Origin: Escherichia phage APECc02
Direction: 5' to 3' (one strand)
DNA: 64,000 bases
Sequence record: NC_041869.1
This document shows positions 10,373 to 16,501 of this stretch, one piece after another. Each line of letters starts with the position of its first letter. Position 1 is the first letter of the stretch. Made by a program: the position numbers and the translations under genes. A model generated the notes under the pieces. It ran no database searches. It saw only the letters and a program-made list of their open reading frames with translations, and had not been told where the DNA came from.

Positions 10373-10723
10373 ATGAAAGATGGGGATAAGCTGCTATATC
10401 TTAAAGTCCCCCTTGAAATACTGTCTATGTCAAAAGTTTTGAATGACACAACTGGGGAGGTTGTTGTTCTTGACTTGTATGACAAGATCGTATACTGCTA
10501 CCTGCACAACTGGTATAAGCTTGGAGGAAGTTCACGCTTCACACCCAGCACAAGGAAAATTGCAGCAGATGTTGGGATAAAGAAAACAAAAGCAGCAGCG
10601 TGCGTTAAAACTTTAGAATGTGCAGGAGTGGTTGAAATATCCACACAAGGGAGAGGTAAAAGATGCACATTTTCCAAAGTTTTGCCACCAGAAGAGGTTA
10701 TTCGAATGTCAACAACTGGTTAG
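10373..10723 (+). CDS. putative DNA-binding protein (helix-turn-helix-like)
   Basis: 116 aa; segment STRKIAADVGIKKTKAAACVKTLECAGVVEI looks like an HTH/winged helix; gene ends 75 bp upstream of the palindromic repeat array. Confidence 0.4.
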   Translation: MKDGDKLLYLKVPLEILSMSKVLNDTTGEVVVLDLYDKIVYCYLHNWYKLGGSSRFTPSTRKIAADVGIKKTKAAACVKTLECAGVVEISTQGRGKRCTFSKVLPPEEVIRMSTTG

Positions 10724-10798
10724 ACCAGTAAAAACTTAAATATCTGTACTATAAGGATTCGTATGTTTTATGTTCGCTCTGGAACAGAGGTTAGTAAC

Positions 10799-10879
10799 TG
10801 TCCGTGATACGGACACTACTGTCCGTCACGCGGACACATCTGCCCGTAATACGGACACTAACTGTCCGTGATACGGACA
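10799..10879. repeat. array of four 17-bp palindromes TGTCCG-N5-CGGACA at 21-22 bp spacing
   Basis: Copies at 10799, 10820, 10841 and 10863; copies 1 and 4 are identical (tgtccgtgatacggaca), copy 3 has one arm mismatch. Confidence 0.8.
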
Positions 10880-10921
10880 CATAAAGAATATAACTAAAAT
10901 AACTAAATAATAAAAAATAAA

Positions 10922-10981
10922 AGATCTAGTACTTATGGTACTAAGTACATATACTTAACTTATGTAGAATATACTAGATCC
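10922..10981. repeat. AT-rich region with nested inverted repeats
   Basis: agatctagta ... tactagatc flanking inverted repeat, plus internal palindromes agtacttatggtact and gtactaagtac; immediately downstream of the repeat array. Confidence 0.4.
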
Positions 10982-11383
10982 TAAGTACCATGTTTTAAAT
11001 TTATTACTTACTATGGGTAGTGTCGGCCCTTCATTGGCACTCGCCTACGAGGGGCGAGATGCCGGGCCTCCCTGGTGCACACAATAACAGAAGTGCATAC
11101 ATGCAGGTCTGTTAACATGTGTGGGAGCGAAGCGATAGCGCAGGCCAAAGGCCGAGCACTGATGTGGACCACCGACGAAAGCTTGCCAGCGCCGTAAGGA
11201 GTCGGTTGAGAGTCTCCCGCGCGAGCTTGGATGAAGTTTATGTGTGGAAACGGACAAGAAGGCCCCTAAATCGCTCCACAGCTATATAAACTATACCAGG
11301 TAAGGCAATCGCACCAGTTTGATAGAAAAGCTCGTTACAAAGCGATACAGTGAGTTTTTCTATAACTTGAAGAGGAGGTAGTT

Positions 11384-11962
11384 ATGAGTCCACGCAAAGA
11401 TGACCGTGAAAAGATTGCAAAACGTTATCAGAATGAAGAACAGATGGAGAAAACTTTCAAGTGGAAGCCAGGTTTCCAGCGTAATCATTCTAACGCTCGT
11501 GATCGTAAGCATCCGGATAAGTGGTTAACACCGCCAAATGATGGCATTCAGGTTGGTGATGAGAAGGAGCTGTCACCTGGAAAAGATGGCAACTACATTC
11601 GAACTAAGGAAGCAGGTCCAAAGGATGACAGCTATCTTGTAGATAAGGTTCTTGACGGTGTTGATGTAGGTGTTGACACTGTACGAAACCTTTTTCTTGG
11701 TTGGTATCGCACAGGGTTTTTCGACATCAAGGCTATTCGTCGTGTTTGTGATATTAAAAAGTCTGCCTACGATGATGATTCCCTACATCGCACTCTGAGA
11801 CAATACTCAGAGAGATACGGTCATCCAGTTATCACTCTTGACGATATTAACGAAGTTATGTATCATGTAGAGGTTGTTGCAGGTAGGTTCGGTGATGCAT
11901 ATCTCGGTATTCTCTCTGCAAAGGATGAGGTAATGTTAAATAAGATTTACTATGAACGCTGA
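11384..11962 (+). CDS. hypothetical protein
   Basis: 192-aa ORF with GAGGAGG RBS upstream; first gene after the noncoding block. Confidence 0.5.
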   Translation: MSPRKDDREKIAKRYQNEEQMEKTFKWKPGFQRNHSNARDRKHPDKWLTPPNDGIQVGDEKELSPGKDGNYIRTKEAGPKDDSYLVDKVLDGVDVGVDTVRNLFLGWYRTGFFDIKAIRRVCDIKKSAYDDDSLHRTLRQYSERYGHPVITLDDINEVMYHVEVVAGRFGDAYLGILSAKDEVMLNKIYYER

Positions 11963-11971
11963 GGGGCGATT

Positions 11972-12161
11972 AATGAACAATCCGGTAGCAAAGAACTGTA
12001 ATAAATTCAACAAGTCTGCGATTCACACTGACAGGAAAAAGAGTTGGTTTCCTGACATTGACGAGGAGCTTGAGAGTTACTTTGAAGATTTAGTCACCAA
12101 TGCAGAGGAGGTTGCGATTAAAGAATACGCAGACAGGAGGGATAAGGCCGGAATCTGTTGA
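11972..12161 (+). CDS. hypothetical small protein
   Basis: About 63 aa from the ATG at 11972 (GAGGGG RBS); ORF track starts 20 nt earlier. Confidence 0.35.
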
Positions 12162-12186
12162 CAAAAATAATGTTACCTGATAAGAT
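12158..12186 (+). promoter_or_regulatory. sigma70-like promoter (TTGACA-N17-TAAGAT)
   Basis: Perfect -35 hexamer, 17-nt spacer; upstream of ORF 12238-12480. Confidence 0.5.
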
Positions 12187-12237
12187 CTGCAATATGATGT
12201 GATACAATTTTAACTTACGAGGTCTACAGGTAATGCT

Positions 12238-12480
12238 ATGTTTAAGGTTAAGCTCGTTTTTCGTTCCATGAATGAGGATTATTTAGAAGATGAAGGTGAA
12301 TTTCGTGCACTGGATGATGCAATAGATTTTGCCAACGACTTAGCTTGTATGAATACGGGTTATGGGCTATGCTGTTGGGATGGTGGTGTTCAGATCGGTG
12401 ATAGCAAGATCTTCTACTTCTACCCTGAGCCCGATAACAAACAAATTAAGTATGTTTTATTTATTTGTGCTTTACAATGA
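12238..12480 (+). CDS. hypothetical protein
   Basis: 80-aa acidic ORF downstream of a consensus promoter. Confidence 0.5.
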   Translation: MFKVKLVFRSMNEDYLEDEGEFRALDDAIDFANDLACMNTGYGLCCWDGGVQIGDSKIFYFYPEPDNKQIKYVLFICALQ

Positions 12481-12767
12481 GGTTGTTTTCGTGTATCATG
12501 ATGAATATCCAATTTAAAGATGAATTTGATGGCTTTATCTCCGGATGCTTTGAAACAGGGTTCGGAGAAGGCTGAGTTACCCTTAGAGGGCTTGATAGTG
12601 CACCACACTTAAAATGGTAGGGGCAGCCAGCACATGACGATGTGACCCCAGCCAACCTGTAATAAGGTCGAGCCAAAGCGCGGTAATGGGCTCTGGTAAC
12701 CCACTTGTTGGGTCTTGCTGGTCCAGGACGCTGGACAAGTCGCAGGGAATACCACCCTGCGGCGAAC

Positions 12768-12796
12768 TTGACAATCAGTATTTGCTATGATAAAAT
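12768..12796 (+). promoter_or_regulatory. sigma70-like promoter (TTGACA-N17-TAAAAT)
   Basis: Perfect -35 and near-consensus -10 about 30 nt upstream of the ATG at 12826. Confidence 0.55.
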
Positions 12797-12825
12797 CCAC
12801 CTATCACGTGATAATGGAGGAAACA

Positions 12826-13163
12826 TGGCGGATACAACTAAAAAGCGTCGCCGTAGAGGCAGACCTCTGAAAGAGGAGTCCAACGCCATTCAGCTAGAGA
12901 AGAACATCCTTGATATGAAGGAATCTTTTATAGCGATGGTTCCAGAAGCTCACAAAGTTTTAAGAGAGCTGATGTTGGACCCGAAAACCAAACAAAATAT
13001 TCGTCAAAGCATTGCAGAGTATGTTCTTGATAAGGCAGACCGAATGCAGGAAGAATATGATGAGATGTTTGGTGAAGAGGAAGAGGTGGTAGTAGAAGAG
13101 GCTGAAAAACCAGCACCTTTTATGCCATTTACCACAGAAATACAGCCTGTTGGCAATAGTTAA
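12826..13163 (+). CDS. hypothetical protein with basic N-terminus and acidic C-terminus
   Basis: Start moved to the ATG at 12826 (GGAGG RBS); KKRRRRGRP N-terminus, EEEEVVVEE tail. The track's 12705 start would run through the promoter. Confidence 0.5.
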
Positions 13164-13172
13164 AATATTTTC

Positions 13173-13201
13173 TTGACAAACTTTGCTTAACAGTGTAATA
13201 T
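13173..13201 (+). promoter_or_regulatory. sigma70 promoter (TTGACA-N17-TAATAT) for the tRNA cluster
   Basis: Consensus hexamers about 60 nt upstream of the first tRNA. Confidence 0.6.
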
Positions 13202-13259
13202 TGTAAACATGGTCTCCCACCTTTTCTGGCGGCTAAGGTGTAAAAGAAAGCCACCCAGT

Positions 13260-13334
13260 GCCCTGTTAGCTTAGTGGATAAAGCAGCGGCCTTCTAAGCC
13301 GTTGACACTGGTTCGAGTCCAGTACGGGGTGCCA
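13260..13334 (+). tRNA. tRNA-Arg (anticodon TCT)
   Basis: Hand-folded cloverleaf: acceptor gccctgt/acggggt (two G-U pairs), D stem gctt/aagc, anticodon loop cttctaa, T arm actgg-ttcgagt-ccagt, encoded CCA. Confidence 0.75.
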
Positions 13335-13338
13335 AATT

Positions 13339-13425
13339 GGGGAGTTATCCCGTAGAGGTAGCGGTGTAGACTGTAAATCTATTGTCATTGCGACTCGGGT
13401 GGTTCGACTCCACCACTCCCCACCA
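13339..13425 (+). tRNA. tRNA-Tyr (anticodon GTA), long variable arm
   Basis: Acceptor ggggagt/actcccc, anticodon loop ctgtaaa, T arm ggtgg-ttcgact-ccacc, encoded CCA; 87 nt type II. Confidence 0.75.
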
Positions 13426-13539
13426 AATTTACATTTTTAAATGCATAAATCATACAGATAATGGCATTGATATTTATCGTCGTTTATACTAGTCACTAAC
13501 TGCTCGAAAATCAGTGTCATTATCAGTATTGTTTATAAA

Positions 13540-13630
13540 TGAGGGTAGGGAGCAATGGTGCTCAAGCGGTCTTGAAAACCGTCCCGTTGAGGATGACTCG
13601 ATGATGGTTCGATTCCATTACCCTCAGCCA
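13540..13630 (+). tRNA. tRNA-Ser (anticodon TGA), long variable arm
   Basis: Acceptor tgagggt/accctca, anticodon stem-loop gcggt-cttgaaa-accgt, T loop ttcgatt, encoded CCA; 91 nt. Confidence 0.7.
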
Positions 13631-13728
13631 TATTGTTGACCTTGTAATTAAGCGAAAGCCGGAAGCAGAACCGGATTATCAAATGTTACAGTCGTCATCG
13701 CCGACTAGCAACATGGTCAACATACTGA

Positions 13729-13825
13729 GCTAGGTAAGCCCTTTGGCAAGGGCGAGGATTTTTAATCCTGAAAATAGACGAGGTAGTCGTTGAATACATA
13801 GGTGGTTCGATTCCATCACCTAGCA
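13729..13825 (+). tRNA. tRNA-like gene, identity ambiguous (anticodon possibly TTT, Lys)
   Basis: Perfect acceptor gctaggt/acctagc, D stem gccc/gggc, T arm ggtgg-ttcgatt-ccatc, but about 30 nt between anticodon arm and T arm, no position-26 spacer, no encoded CCA. Confidence 0.4.
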
Positions 13826-13832
13826 CCTTTTT

Positions 13833-13908
13833 GCTGATGTAGCACAATTGGTAGTGCAATTGATTTGTAATCAATAGGTTGCAGGTTCGAGTCCTGCTAT
13901 CAGCACCA
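13833..13908 (+). tRNA. tRNA-Thr (anticodon TGT)
   Basis: Acceptor gctgatg/tatcagc, D stem gcac/gtgc, anticodon arm attga-tttgtaa-tcaat, T arm gcagg-ttcgagt-cctgc, CCA; 76 nt. Confidence 0.8.
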
Positions 13909-13909
13909 T

Positions 13910-13984
13910 GGCCCTGTAGCTGGAAGGTTCAAGCAAGCGACTCATAATCGCCAGACGGTGGTTCAATTCCACCCAGGGCCACCA
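13910..13984 (+). tRNA. tRNA with CAT anticodon (Met, or Ile2 read via lysidine)
   Basis: Acceptor ggccctg/cagggcc, anticodon loop ctcataa, T arm ggtgg-ttcaatt-ccacc, CCA. The anticodon arm gcgactcataatcgc resembles bacterial tRNA-Ile2 as I recall it. Confidence 0.7.
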
Positions 13985-13995
13985 AATAATAAATA

Positions 13996-14072
13996 CTCCG
14001 CGTAGCTCAGCTTGGTAGAGCGCCTGATTTGGGATCAGGAGGTCGAGTGTTCGAATCACTCCGTGGAGACCA
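13996..14072 (+). tRNA. tRNA-Pro (anticodon TGG)
   Basis: Acceptor ctccgcg/cgtggag with C1-G72, D arm gctc-agcttggta-gagc, anticodon arm cctga-tttggga-tcagg, T arm gagtg-ttcgaat-cactc, CCA. Confidence 0.8.
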
Positions 14073-14900: not shown

Positions 14901-15184
14901 GAGTTGCTACACTGTTTATTGCGTGCTTGTTATTATGTGGGTGTGCAACCAGCGTTGAGAGAGAATACAAGATTGACCCTCCGGATGTAGGAAGGTTGAT
15001 TGTTAAACCCCCGGAAGGTGCCATGAAACCACCTGCTAAAGCTATGCCTTTGAAGAAAGGTGCTCCAGATGCAGTAAATTCTGGCATTATGAGGGATAAT
15101 AATTTGTCTTGTAGCAATGATAGAGCTAAATTGATCATTTTGCAAGACTATATTAGAACACTGTTTCCAAAGGAGAGAGGTTAA
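14897..15184 (+). CDS. putative o-spanin (Rz1-like lipoprotein)
   Basis: 95 aa; signal peptide ending in a lipobox-like LLCGC, proline-rich mature part; stop overlaps the terminase start codon. Confidence 0.55.
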   Translation: MRVATLFIACLLLCGCATSVEREYKIDPPDVGRLIVKPPEGAMKPPAKAMPLKKGAPDAVNSGIMRDNNLSCSNDRAKLIILQDYIRTLFPKERG

Positions 15185-15618
15185 TGTCTAAGATTTCTAA
15201 GATTTACGGACCGTGTTCTGAAAAGCAGAAGATGATCCTCGAAAACGATGCAGATATTTTGGTAATCGGCGGTGCCGCAGGGTCTGGCAAGTCGTTCCTC
15301 TTGCAGTTGATGCCGCTTAAAATTATTGATGACCCACACAGCTCTGTGGTTATGTTCCGAAGAACAACCCCGCAGTTGGAAGGTGAGGGTGGACTATGGC
15401 CTAAAGCAGTAGCTATTTATAGTGATCTGCCTGAAAACATTAAGCCAAAGTTTAGAGAGAAGGATCATAAGTTCATTTTTCCACGGTTTGATCCGAGCAC
15501 TGGCAAGTGGGATAGAAGCAAAAAGGGAGCTGTTGTAAAATACTGCCACATGGAGTATGTACAAGATAAGCTTAACCATCAGGGGCTTGAGTACACCATG
15601 GTTTGCTTCGATGAGGGT
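15184..15618 (+). CDS. terminase large subunit, exon 1 (ATPase N-terminal part)
   Basis: Walker A VIGGAAGSGKSF; ORF stops immediately after the Walker B-like MVCFDEG, with the rest of the protein in another frame about 0.9 kb downstream. Confidence 0.75.
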
Positions 15619-16501
15619 TAATTTGTAGCTCTCGTAAAACCTCCCTAATTGCGGGGAAATCTTTATTATTGACACCACCAACCTGTTATGGTAACATAAT
15701 AGAGGCTTCGAAGAGAGATCGAAGGTATGGTAACAGTGTGTTAATTTAGATAATCCGCAGCGAAGCATCCGAGAGGATGAACGTTCAACGACTAGTCGAA
15801 AGACGTAGAATCAAGCGATTCGAAACGGGAGGGTGAATGTGTAATACTAAAAAATGTATGGATTGCCAAAGAGTTCTGCCTATTGATGATTTCTTTTTAT
15901 CATCTAAGAGCAAGGATGGATACTCAGGTACATGCAAGGAATGCTATATGTACTACAGGAAGGGTGGATCTCGTAAAAACAAAAATATGGTTAAGAGAGA
16001 TGACGCAGCATTGTTTATTCAAGACTTGCTGAAGAAAGGTGAACTTTTTGAATGCAAATCTTGTCATGAAAGTATGCTCGCTGATAGTTTTTACACAAAA
16101 CGTGACTATGGTAAAGTATATCTGGTTACGAACAGGTGTAAGATGTGTGAAAAGTTTTATCAGATTGAGAAGAAATTTCACATAACAAAAGATGAATACT
16201 ATCGTCTACTCTCAGATCAAGATCATAAGTGTGCCATTTGTAGAATATCTCTTAATGAGTATAGGACGCAAGGGTACAGAGATTTCTTTTGTGTTGATCA
16301 TGACCATAAAACTGGTGCTGTAAGAGGGTTGCTTTGTGATAAATGCAACAGAGCTTTAGGTTTCTTCCAAGAAGATGAGGAAACTATTCTTAGAGCGGCA
16401 GAGTATTTACACATTCATAAGATATAGTCTGGTCTGCATGGAGACATGCAGCTGCCTGAAAATGGCGGGGCAAGACTAGCGACCTTGCCCGAACATAAAC
16501 G
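15619..16501 (+). mobile_element. putative group I intron carrying an HNH homing endonuclease
   Basis: Intervening 883 nt between the two terminase parts; proposed 5' exon ends in T (15618) and intervening sequence ends in G (16501); free-standing HNH ORF inside; boundaries approximate. Confidence 0.55.
15837..16427 (+). CDS. HNH homing endonuclease (endonuclease VII-like motif)
   Basis: 196 aa; Cys-rich N-terminal zinc-finger-like region and CVDHDHKTGAVRGLLCDKCNRALG motif. Confidence 0.8.
   Translation: MCNTKKCMDCQRVLPIDDFFLSSKSKDGYSGTCKECYMYYRKGGSRKNKNMVKRDDAALFIQDLLKKGELFECKSCHESMLADSFYTKRDYGKVYLVTNRCKMCEKFYQIEKKFHITKDEYYRLLSDQDHKCAICRISLNEYRTQGYRDFFCVDHDHKTGAVRGLLCDKCNRALGFFQEDEETILRAAEYLHIHKI

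Follow-up and report, generated by a model that had tools for sequence, protein, structure and literature searches.

A predicted three-way-junction RNA motif in an intergenic island of Escherichia phage APECc02 recurs in T4-like phages and in phage tRNA arrays

The subject of this study is an intergenic island in Escherichia phage APECc02 (record NC_041869.1), contained in a 64,000-nucleotide stretch that we call the window, together with the structured RNA that the island is predicted to encode. At the heart of that RNA (12620–12696) is one putative member of a widespread, phage-only motif. The 6 kb around the locus is 97–98% identical to rV5-like coliphages (Vequintavirus), and in the GenBank annotation of rV5 the counterpart of the interval lies between ORF75 and the promoter P74 with its gene ORF74, a tRNA cluster following shortly downstream. 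All features of the locus are on the plus strand. The promoter P75 (12158–12186; TTGACA-17-TAAGAT, 10/12 in a promoter scan and annotated under that name in rV5) is the likely source of transcripts crossing ORF75 into the island. ORF75 itself (12238–12480) encodes an 80-amino-acid hypothetical protein of phrog_5676, function unknown. A weaker promoter-like site, TTTACA-17-TATCAT (12471–12499; 10/12 in the scan, by consensus match only), could also start a transcript just 5′ of the RNA. A 32-codon ORF (12477–12575), the ATG of which overlaps the ORF75 stop (ATGA), is an annotated CDS in phages ime and JLBYU08.

The island proper begins with an rV5-type-specific 5′ domain (12580–12619; CCCTTAGAGGGCTTGATAGTGCACCACACTTAAAATGGTA), near-identical in rV5-like phages and in the contigs L037, L230 and L270 (L numbers are our labels for collected loci and contigs). 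It continues with a stem, S1, and its inner hairpin (12620–12649), for which relatives carry compensatory replacements, then with the conserved core, a three-way junction (12651–12696), and finally with an rV5-specific 3′ region (12697–12767) containing, by sequence and minimum-energy fold, three hairpins: CCC/GGG (12700–12712), TCCAG/CTGGA (12722–12735) and CGCAGGG/CCCTGCG (12741–12761). P74 (12768–12796; TTGACA-17-TAAAAT) marks the 3′ limit of the island. Beyond it lie ORF74 (12825–13163), which encodes 112 residues of unknown function (phrog_3330; no Pfam match), and a tRNA cluster (13260–14072; Arg, Tyr, Ser, an odd tRNA-like gene, Thr, Met and Pro, called by ARAGORN and Rfam) that starts 564 nt 3′ of the core on the same strand.

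The original prediction had marked 12481–12767 as a GC-rich stretch of about 290 bp without a plausible ORF, with two perfect hairpins and a promoter at its end, and had considered a small RNA or processed leader possible. Its description of composition and signals is accurate: GC content is 0.51–0.53 at 12575–12799 compared with 0.35–0.41 in the flanks, both hairpins exist (TCCAG-GACG-CTGGA, 12722–12735; CGCAGGG-AATACCA-CCCTGCG, 12741–12761), and TTGACA-N17-TAAAAT is the predicted σ70 promoter at 12768–12796 (11/12, with a TG extension), which the rV5 record names P74. The start of the downstream gene, placed at 12826, is at 12825. The claimed lack of an ORF is true of 12576–12767 (192 bp), where the listed ORFs on either strand are all shorter than 75 amino acids and overlap one another, but not of 12477–12575, where the 32-codon ORF covers the first third of the reported interval. 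Since 12477–12575 is an annotated small ORF, the noncoding island is 12576–12767. The coding status of that ORF is itself doubtful, because the sister group (L037) retains just eight of its codons while 21 nt stay identical. This 21-nt block (12517–12537; AAAGATGAATTTGATGGCTTT) is shared without change between rV5-like phages and the divergent L037 group, in which it ends 5 nt before the −35 element of the consensus promoter of the RNA; the equivalent promoter in the window has decayed. Instead of encoding protein, the block may serve as a protein-binding site or UP-like element.

The features on which the prediction was based, hairpins and GC content, turn out to be the least conserved parts of the island. 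The sequence of the two hairpins is conserved only among close rV5 relatives, and the sister group has hairpins of different sequence in their place. A scan of 12481–12767 for intrinsic terminators found none; the hairpin at 12741–12761 is followed by GCGAACTTGACA, and because no T run follows them the hairpins are not intrinsic terminators. The decisive segments, the core at 12651–12696 and the hairpin at 12620–12649, had been missed. The significant signal in the island is conservation, as judged from sequence comparison, and not folding energy. The earlier suspicion of a small RNA was right in kind and was based on the wrong features.

Conservation of the core extends far beyond the rV5-like phages. 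A sensitive BLAST search of 12400–12830 against 50,697 phage records returned 679 matching records, about 117 of them full-length rV5-like matches. More than 500 further records match solely 12648–12690 (query positions 249–291), at 91–97% identity. These core-only matches come from T4 and T4-like phages of Escherichia, Shigella, Yersinia, Salmonella and Citrobacter (93–95% identity over 12648–12690) and from Pseudomonas phage PsgM04F (97% over 35 nt, about 90% for the 46-nt core). A query of the Enterobacter phage PG7 type added 402 further phage records, from Klebsiella, Enterobacter, Serratia and Erwinia phages. We also ran exact-pattern scans of IMG/VR, a metagenome collection and 185,579 bacterial and archaeal species genomes. 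Many phage contigs carrying the element came from the first two of these collections, and a relaxed pattern, CCTGTAANAAGGN{9,16}CGGTAA, recovered far more divergent members.

A covariance model built from the core identifies 58 strong copies (28–71 bits) in the collected loci, which include unrelated phage contigs; L041, L042 and L328 each have a tandem pair, and every other locus has a single copy. The window contains a single strong match in 64 kb, at 12651–12696 (64.6 bits, E = 1.4e-22), and shuffles predict no chance match of the 35-nt core pattern in it. The motif is absent from 5,426 complete E. coli genomes. The strict core pattern has 119 matches in the 185,579 bacterial and archaeal genomes; all of them lack the adjacent hairpin H2 described below and lie in GC-rich coding sequence, and they are therefore attributed to chance. 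Within the limits of the patterns used, these scans show the motif to be phage-only. Contigs of the L299/L301 type fit the relaxed pattern and end in a terminator, and were excluded from the family at 16–19 bits by the model. In L299, L301, L310 and about 12 similar short viral contigs without tRNAs, a hairpin is followed by CCTGTAAWAAGG, then GGAATGTTGCGGTAA and then an intrinsic terminator; this element may be a distant relative or an unrelated small RNA.

The motif is composed of a variable 5′ hairpin (S1) and a compact three-way junction of helices P3, H2 and Pa′. In the window, the outer stem of S1 pairs GGGG (12620–12623) with CCCC (12646–12649) and encloses the hairpin CACAT-GACG-ATGTG (12631–12644). 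P3 is formed between the four nucleotides before H2 (GCCA, 12651–12654) and the four after GGUAA (TGGG, 12687–12690). H2 consists of ACCT (12655–12658), the hexaloop GTAATA (12659–12664) and AGGT (12665–12668). A C-R-A joiner (CGA, 12669–12671) leads to Pa′, a 2–3-bp helix of the form G-Y…R-C with a loop of 3–6 nt (GC 12672–12673 with GC 12680–12681), and a second joiner, GGTAA (12682–12686), leads back to P3. Both joiners, C-R-A and GGUAA, hardly vary across motif copies. The hexaloop follows the rule G-N-R-A-N-A (GUAAUA, GUAAAA, GUGAAA, GUAACA, GCAAAA, GGAAUA, GUGAUA; GUAGAA is also seen, and, more rarely, GUAGCA or AUAAUA), which points to a GNRA-like loop making a tertiary contact. The window copy thus has every feature that defines the family: the H2 hexaloop, Pa′ with GGUAA and P3, and a position on the same strand as a tRNA array. 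Upstream of the motif, the 40 nt at 12580–12619 are almost invariant between two vequintavirus-like groups, and the adjacent coding sequence has diverged.

Several other features were considered for the motif and dropped. A CC/GG helix closing the 7-nt loop is broken in L333, L344 and L352, whereas G-Y/R-C covaries; an S3 helix, GAGCC/GGCUC, has no consistent register; and CsrA-type GGA sites, noted by eye in the 3′ regions, reflect a triplet too frequent for meaning. A tmRNA-like stop codon in the H2 loop looked plausible for the first nine variants, all with UAA, UGA or UAG at positions 2–4; the rule is broken by GGAAUA (L247) and GCAAAA (L328), and a GNRA-like hexaloop explains the data better. 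The tandem copies have diverged from each other (L041 5091–5134 and 5202–5247; L042 9024–9069 and 9138–9181; L328 833–878 and 919–963), the second having a shorter Pa′ loop (GUC-CGC-GAC or GCC-CGC-GGC).

The proposed helices covary. In 59 distinct sequences, aligned by fitting to the model, the inner pair of P3 is formed in all 59 by five pair types (AU 34, UA 13, CG 7, UG 4, GC 1), the second Pa′ pair is formed in 53 of 53 (CG 43, UA 8, GC 2), and H2 is paired throughout, its outer pair being AU, GU or GC. The covariation score is 0.260, compared with 0.105 in shuffles (0 of 500 reach it) and at most 0.135 when the partners are slid. An independent MAFFT alignment of T4-like sequences (n = 11) has 97.5% of cells paired against 21–57% when slid, and its S1 pair 9:56 occurs as GC (6), CG (4) and AU (1). 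S1 changes in a compensatory manner between and within classes: GGGG/CCCC in rV5-like phages becomes GGAAC/GTTCC in the sister group and the inner CACAT/ATGTG becomes CTACG/CGTAG, GGGAA/TTCCC becomes GGGAG/CTCCC within T4 relatives, and GAGTG/CACTC becomes GAATG/CATTC within the Pseudomonas-phage class. As an objective single-sequence search for S1 could not be distinguished from shuffles, support for S1 rests on these within-class compensatory changes.

These patterns bear on whether the element is an RNA at all. That it is instead protein-coding (the Vs.8 N terminus in T4, small ORFs in rV5), a DNA-level site or a chance similarity is very improbable in our estimation. For a coding role speak the T4 reference, NC_000866.4, in which vs.8 is annotated at 64253–64912, across the motif at 64860–64895, and some rV5-like records that extend ORF74 upstream to 12705. 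Yet an in-frame stop interrupts the stretch from the core to the conserved vs.8 ATG in 10 of the 12 T4-like representatives, one close T4 relative has a 1-nt shift in the spacing between motif and vs.8, another Tequatrovirus record starts vs.8 at the conserved ATG, and substitutions in the helices are compensatory and not concentrated at third codon positions. G–U pairs, which occur on the plus strand only, together with strict co-orientation oppose a DNA site, and the chance expectation for the core is 0 in shuffles. The vs.8 CDS of the T4 reference appears to be about 40 codons too long at its 5′ end, overrunning the RNA motif, and the annotation of the motif as the start of vs.8 is probably wrong. 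From the conserved start, vs.8 encodes 179 residues that include a P-loop and show weak similarity to the ATPase domains of terminases. The motif position in L292 (1861–1896, minus strand) is tied to the same annotation question.

The genomic surroundings of the motif are consistent in orientation and variable in content. It is always co-oriented with the direction of transcription of its neighbours. Among 41 non-T4-like loci, 29 have a same-strand tRNA within 1 kb, 41–715 nt away, and none has one on the opposite strand; 17 T4-like loci have no tRNA in that range. This distribution shows an association of the predicted motif with tRNA arrays. The PsgM04F copy lies inside a tRNA array, between tRNA-Thr and a strong promoter, and the T4 copy lies in the short denV–vs.8 spacer, before the conserved vs.8 start. 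In the rV5 sister group a consensus promoter, TTGACA-17-TATACT, stands directly 5′ of the RNA; in L038 and L348 intrinsic terminators stand just 3′ of the motif; and in both the window and PsgM04F a strong promoter comes right after it. We regard these promoters and terminators, as well as the long complementary flanks of the unit in the Pseudomonas-phage class, as signs of an independent gene or a 3′-terminal element. The flanking proteins give no functional clue by PHROG or Pfam.

One alternative is that the motif acts in cis as a leader, either a riboswitch-like aptamer or a protein-binding operator, for the gene that follows. We consider this unlikely overall; it fits best in T4-like phages, where the core keeps a constant 82–91 nt before the conserved vs.8 start and the upstream gene varies (three subclasses). 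L038 has a terminator after the motif and, beyond it, a ribosome-binding site with a gene. The segment after GGUAA has mutually exclusive pairings, with P3 or with GAGCC, as in a switching expression platform, and strongly conserved junction nucleotides are typical of aptamers. Known three-way-junction aptamers and riboswitches are similar to the motif in their compact conserved junction, variable peripheral stems and possible alternative pairing, but no particular gene is conserved downstream of the motif, and what comes next is often a promoter, a terminator or tRNAs. A promoter separates the motif from ORF74 in the window and follows it in PsgM04F, and in many loci the next genes are tRNAs or nothing. 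The downstream proteins are unrelated: no vs.8 homologue is found near the motif in the window, in rV5-like phages or at any other locus, and ORF74 and vs.8 fall into separate PHROGs. No Rfam riboswitch model matches. In the window, a leader role for ORF74 is unlikely because the strong σ70 promoter P74 intervenes. The general idea originally raised, a small RNA or processed leader, nevertheless gains support, as the island contains a conserved structured RNA element with covarying helices that is read in the direction of its neighbours.

Comparison with known RNAs gave no family for the motif. At gathering thresholds, Rfam 15 (4,227 models) finds only tRNAs in the whole window. The Rfam scan that had been proposed as a check assigns no family to the island: at E ≤ 10 nothing is found in the surrounding 10600–13300, and the 192-nt island searched alone gives three noise matches of 9–12 bits. 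Nothing is found at the motif in T4-like and other loci either. ARAGORN calls seven tRNAs at 13260–14072 and none in 12481–12767, and the island contains no tmRNA-like tag peptide. Full-text literature searches did not find the motif sequence, as RNA or DNA, or anything relevant by topic; it could be among the roughly 10,000 candidate viral RNAs of a 2023 catalogue. The motif is apparently undescribed so far and in no catalogued RNA family.

The nearest known counterparts in kind, the T4 species 1 and 2 RNAs (rnaC and rnaD) and the GOLLD and ROOL RNAs, are structured orphans encoded next to phage tRNAs. Both rnaC and rnaD are likewise small, structured and of unknown function, are co-transcribed with tRNAs and are annotated as misc_RNA. 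They have no sequence or structural similarity to the motif: rnaC has a tRNA-like T-arm end and rnaD has no core, and the T4 copy of the motif is about 6 kb from both. They are confined to T4 relatives, whereas the motif crosses phage families, and homology to either was rejected. GOLLD and ROOL are phage structured non-coding RNAs of 500–800 nt that lie beside tRNA genes, have no known function and are represented in Rfam; the motif, by contrast, has a core of about 46 nt (roughly 80–190 nt with flanks) and no Rfam match.

Short words identical to those of the motif occur in E. coli RNase P RNA (M1 185–194, GUGCGGUAAG) and in rRNA loops (23S GUAAUA, 16S GCGGUAAU). By analogy, the GGUAA strand might fold locally like these words, which we treat as a lead only. 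Mimicry of rRNA (the GUAAUA loop at 23S 1093–1098, GCGGUAAU of the 16S 530 loop and GUAACAAGGU of the 16S 3′ end) was dropped, the alignments being no better than shuffles (Smith–Waterman comparison with E. coli 16S, 23S, 5S and M1 RNAs, p = 0.05–1.0). A relation to RNase P RNA through GUGCGGUAAG was dropped as well, as it is neither significant nor collinear and no RNase P model of Rfam matches in the window.

Hammerhead, twister and HDV-like theta ribozymes are known in phage genomes, next to phage tRNAs. They have in common with the motif a small size, a multi-helix junction, invariant unpaired bases and intergenic sites near tRNAs, and the motif might accordingly be read as a self-cleaving ribozyme or processing signal that cuts polycistronic early or tRNA-operon transcripts. 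It does sit between genes or between tRNAs in long transcripts, its small three-way junction has about ten invariant unpaired nucleotides, and in the Pseudomonas-phage class long complementary flanks bracket the motif unit and resemble processing stems. However, no ribozyme covariance model of Rfam matches the motif, even with E up to 10 on the 192 nt; its junction strands (C-R-A, GGUAA, none) are unlike the hammerhead core and, to our knowledge, differ from those of every ribozyme class; the sequence suggests no cleavage site; and, unlike ribozymes that trim tRNA ends, the motif lies at variable distances from its nearest tRNA (41 to more than 700 nt). On balance we rate cleavage as rather improbable, slightly more so than a leader role.

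In the Pseudomonas-phage class (L030 1929–2227, L002 2370–2640 and L035), the tRNA and non-coding RNA units of the operon are divided by a repeatedly occurring cassette, CACAACAGGTAAGAGCATT, about 48 nt and AGTGCTCTTATCGTTGTG, with complementary ends, and the side of the motif on which it lies differs between phages. The positions look as if units had been shuffled between processing hairpins. In the metagenomic phage contigs L030 (1812–1845), L032 and L035, a tmRNA-like tag frame, ANEE(M/V)YLAVA-stop, lies 261–287 nt 5′ of the motif with its stop in a hairpin loop, and a T-arm (GGTTCGACTCC) followed by CCACCA lies about 220 nt 3′ of it. These contigs have weak Rfam matches to tmRNA and permuted tmRNA, and ARAGORN calls none. 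Tag frame and T-arm together may represent an unusual, perhaps interrupted, phage tmRNA.

The motif could also serve as a decoy against host defence or a host factor, imitating an antitoxin RNA or the part of a tRNA targeted by an anticodon nuclease. All carriers are virulent, tRNA-encoding phages, from several families and hosts, and the start of the H2 loop (CUGUAA) resembles what we take to be the anticodon loop of tRNA-Tyr. One contig with the motif, L313, also has an abiF RNA above the gathering score beside a tRNA. But the core was not found at the strict pattern in the 185,579 bacterial and archaeal genomes, leaving no visible host RNA to mimic, and loops such as GCAAAA, GGAAUA, GUGAAA and AUAAUA keep no fixed anticodon. 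We consider a decoy improbable, although less so than the absence of any RNA. The abiF match in L313 (3624–3655, minus strand; 45.4 bits against a gathering threshold of 37) lies right beside tRNA-Asn, and suggests that defence-related RNA motifs ride in phage tRNA arrays.

What the motif does we infer throughout from its sequence and surroundings. The reading that we favour, to which we assign a probability of about 50%, is that the plus strand at 12576–12767 encodes a discrete structured non-coding RNA that derives from early transcripts or from those of tRNA operons, and the invariant junction of which would be bound by a conserved partner. Its synthesis would depend either on read-through from P75 or on initiation at the weak 12471 promoter, and the RNA would form the 3′ end of that transcription unit, just before P74. 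It would work as a discrete folded RNA and not as the leader of ORF74. Its invariant unpaired nucleotides and hexaloop may build a tertiary fold that the partner recognises, and, because of the genomic locations of the motif, the partner would most likely be a component of host or phage tRNA and translation metabolism.

Several observations weigh against this reading. Thermodynamic folding is no better than in shuffles for the island, on both strands, or for its sub-domains (z-scores of −1.85 on the plus strand and −1.79 on the minus strand; −1.6 to +1.3 for sub-domains). The fitting of the 59-sequence alignment to the model favours structure, and the patterns used for collection fix GGTAA and most of H2, so that their invariance arises partly by construction. 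The helices are short (2–5 bp), and the segment after GGUAA can pair with GAGCC instead in 74% of cells. Finally, the fixed distance to vs.8 in T4-like phages, far from tRNAs, suits a cis role there.

More broadly, the motif may constitute an undescribed, phage-specific RNA class, a compact three-way junction present in the tRNA arrays of numerous unrelated, large, virulent phages and concealed in the T4 denV–vs.8 spacer by a CDS annotated in error, with an activity as a new ribozyme, a sensor of a ligand or tRNA, or a host-factor decoy; we hold this tentatively, at slightly less than even odds. Were a catalytic, sensing or anti-defence activity to prove true, it would make the motif a new RNA class. 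Phage tRNA arrays, usually annotated as tRNAs and 'hypothetical proteins', also hold a recurrent, strongly constrained RNA fold. At least several hundred sequenced phages have it, among them T4, the most thoroughly studied of all. The fold would offer a new handle on the roles of phage tRNA islands beyond codon supply, and would put right how T4 vs.8 is annotated, along with the spurious small ORFs called in rV5-like and Pseudomonas phages. Its core of about 46 nt is a small, defined RNA for structure determination and the search for partners.

Other observations were made in the window and its relatives. The odd tRNA-like gene in the tRNA cluster (13729–13827; 97–99 nt) is given a four-base anticodon (atcc) and no amino acid by ARAGORN, scores 35.5 bits with the Rfam tRNA model, and is also present in the related contigs L018 and L344. 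Another GC-rich island (11000–11300; GC 0.53–0.57), without a long ORF or an Rfam match, is conserved only in Vequintavirus (117 records, 90–99.7% identity) and bears no relation to the motif; the rV5 record lists it as ORF78, and the records of most relatives have no feature there. Four direct repeats of 21–22 bp (TAACTGTCCGTGATACGGACAC and variants), spaced by 21–22 bp, occupy 10795–10880, just 3′ of a gene (10373–10723) that matches 'replication initiation protein' PHROGs and ahead of a stretch of 27% GC (10880–11000); from its sequence, this arrangement resembles a replication origin of the iteron type. The gene for the large terminase is split (15184–16427): an N-terminal P-loop fragment (15184–15621) is followed by a 196-residue Cys/His-rich ORF, annotated in relatives as recombination endonuclease VII or HNH, and the rV5 record joins the terminase from three pieces. 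Lastly, 'Campylobacter phage' records of the MG0656xx series (such as MG065654 and MG065666) are 97–99% identical over 6 kb to the E. coli rV5-like sequence of the window and are probably mislabelled or contaminant genomes.

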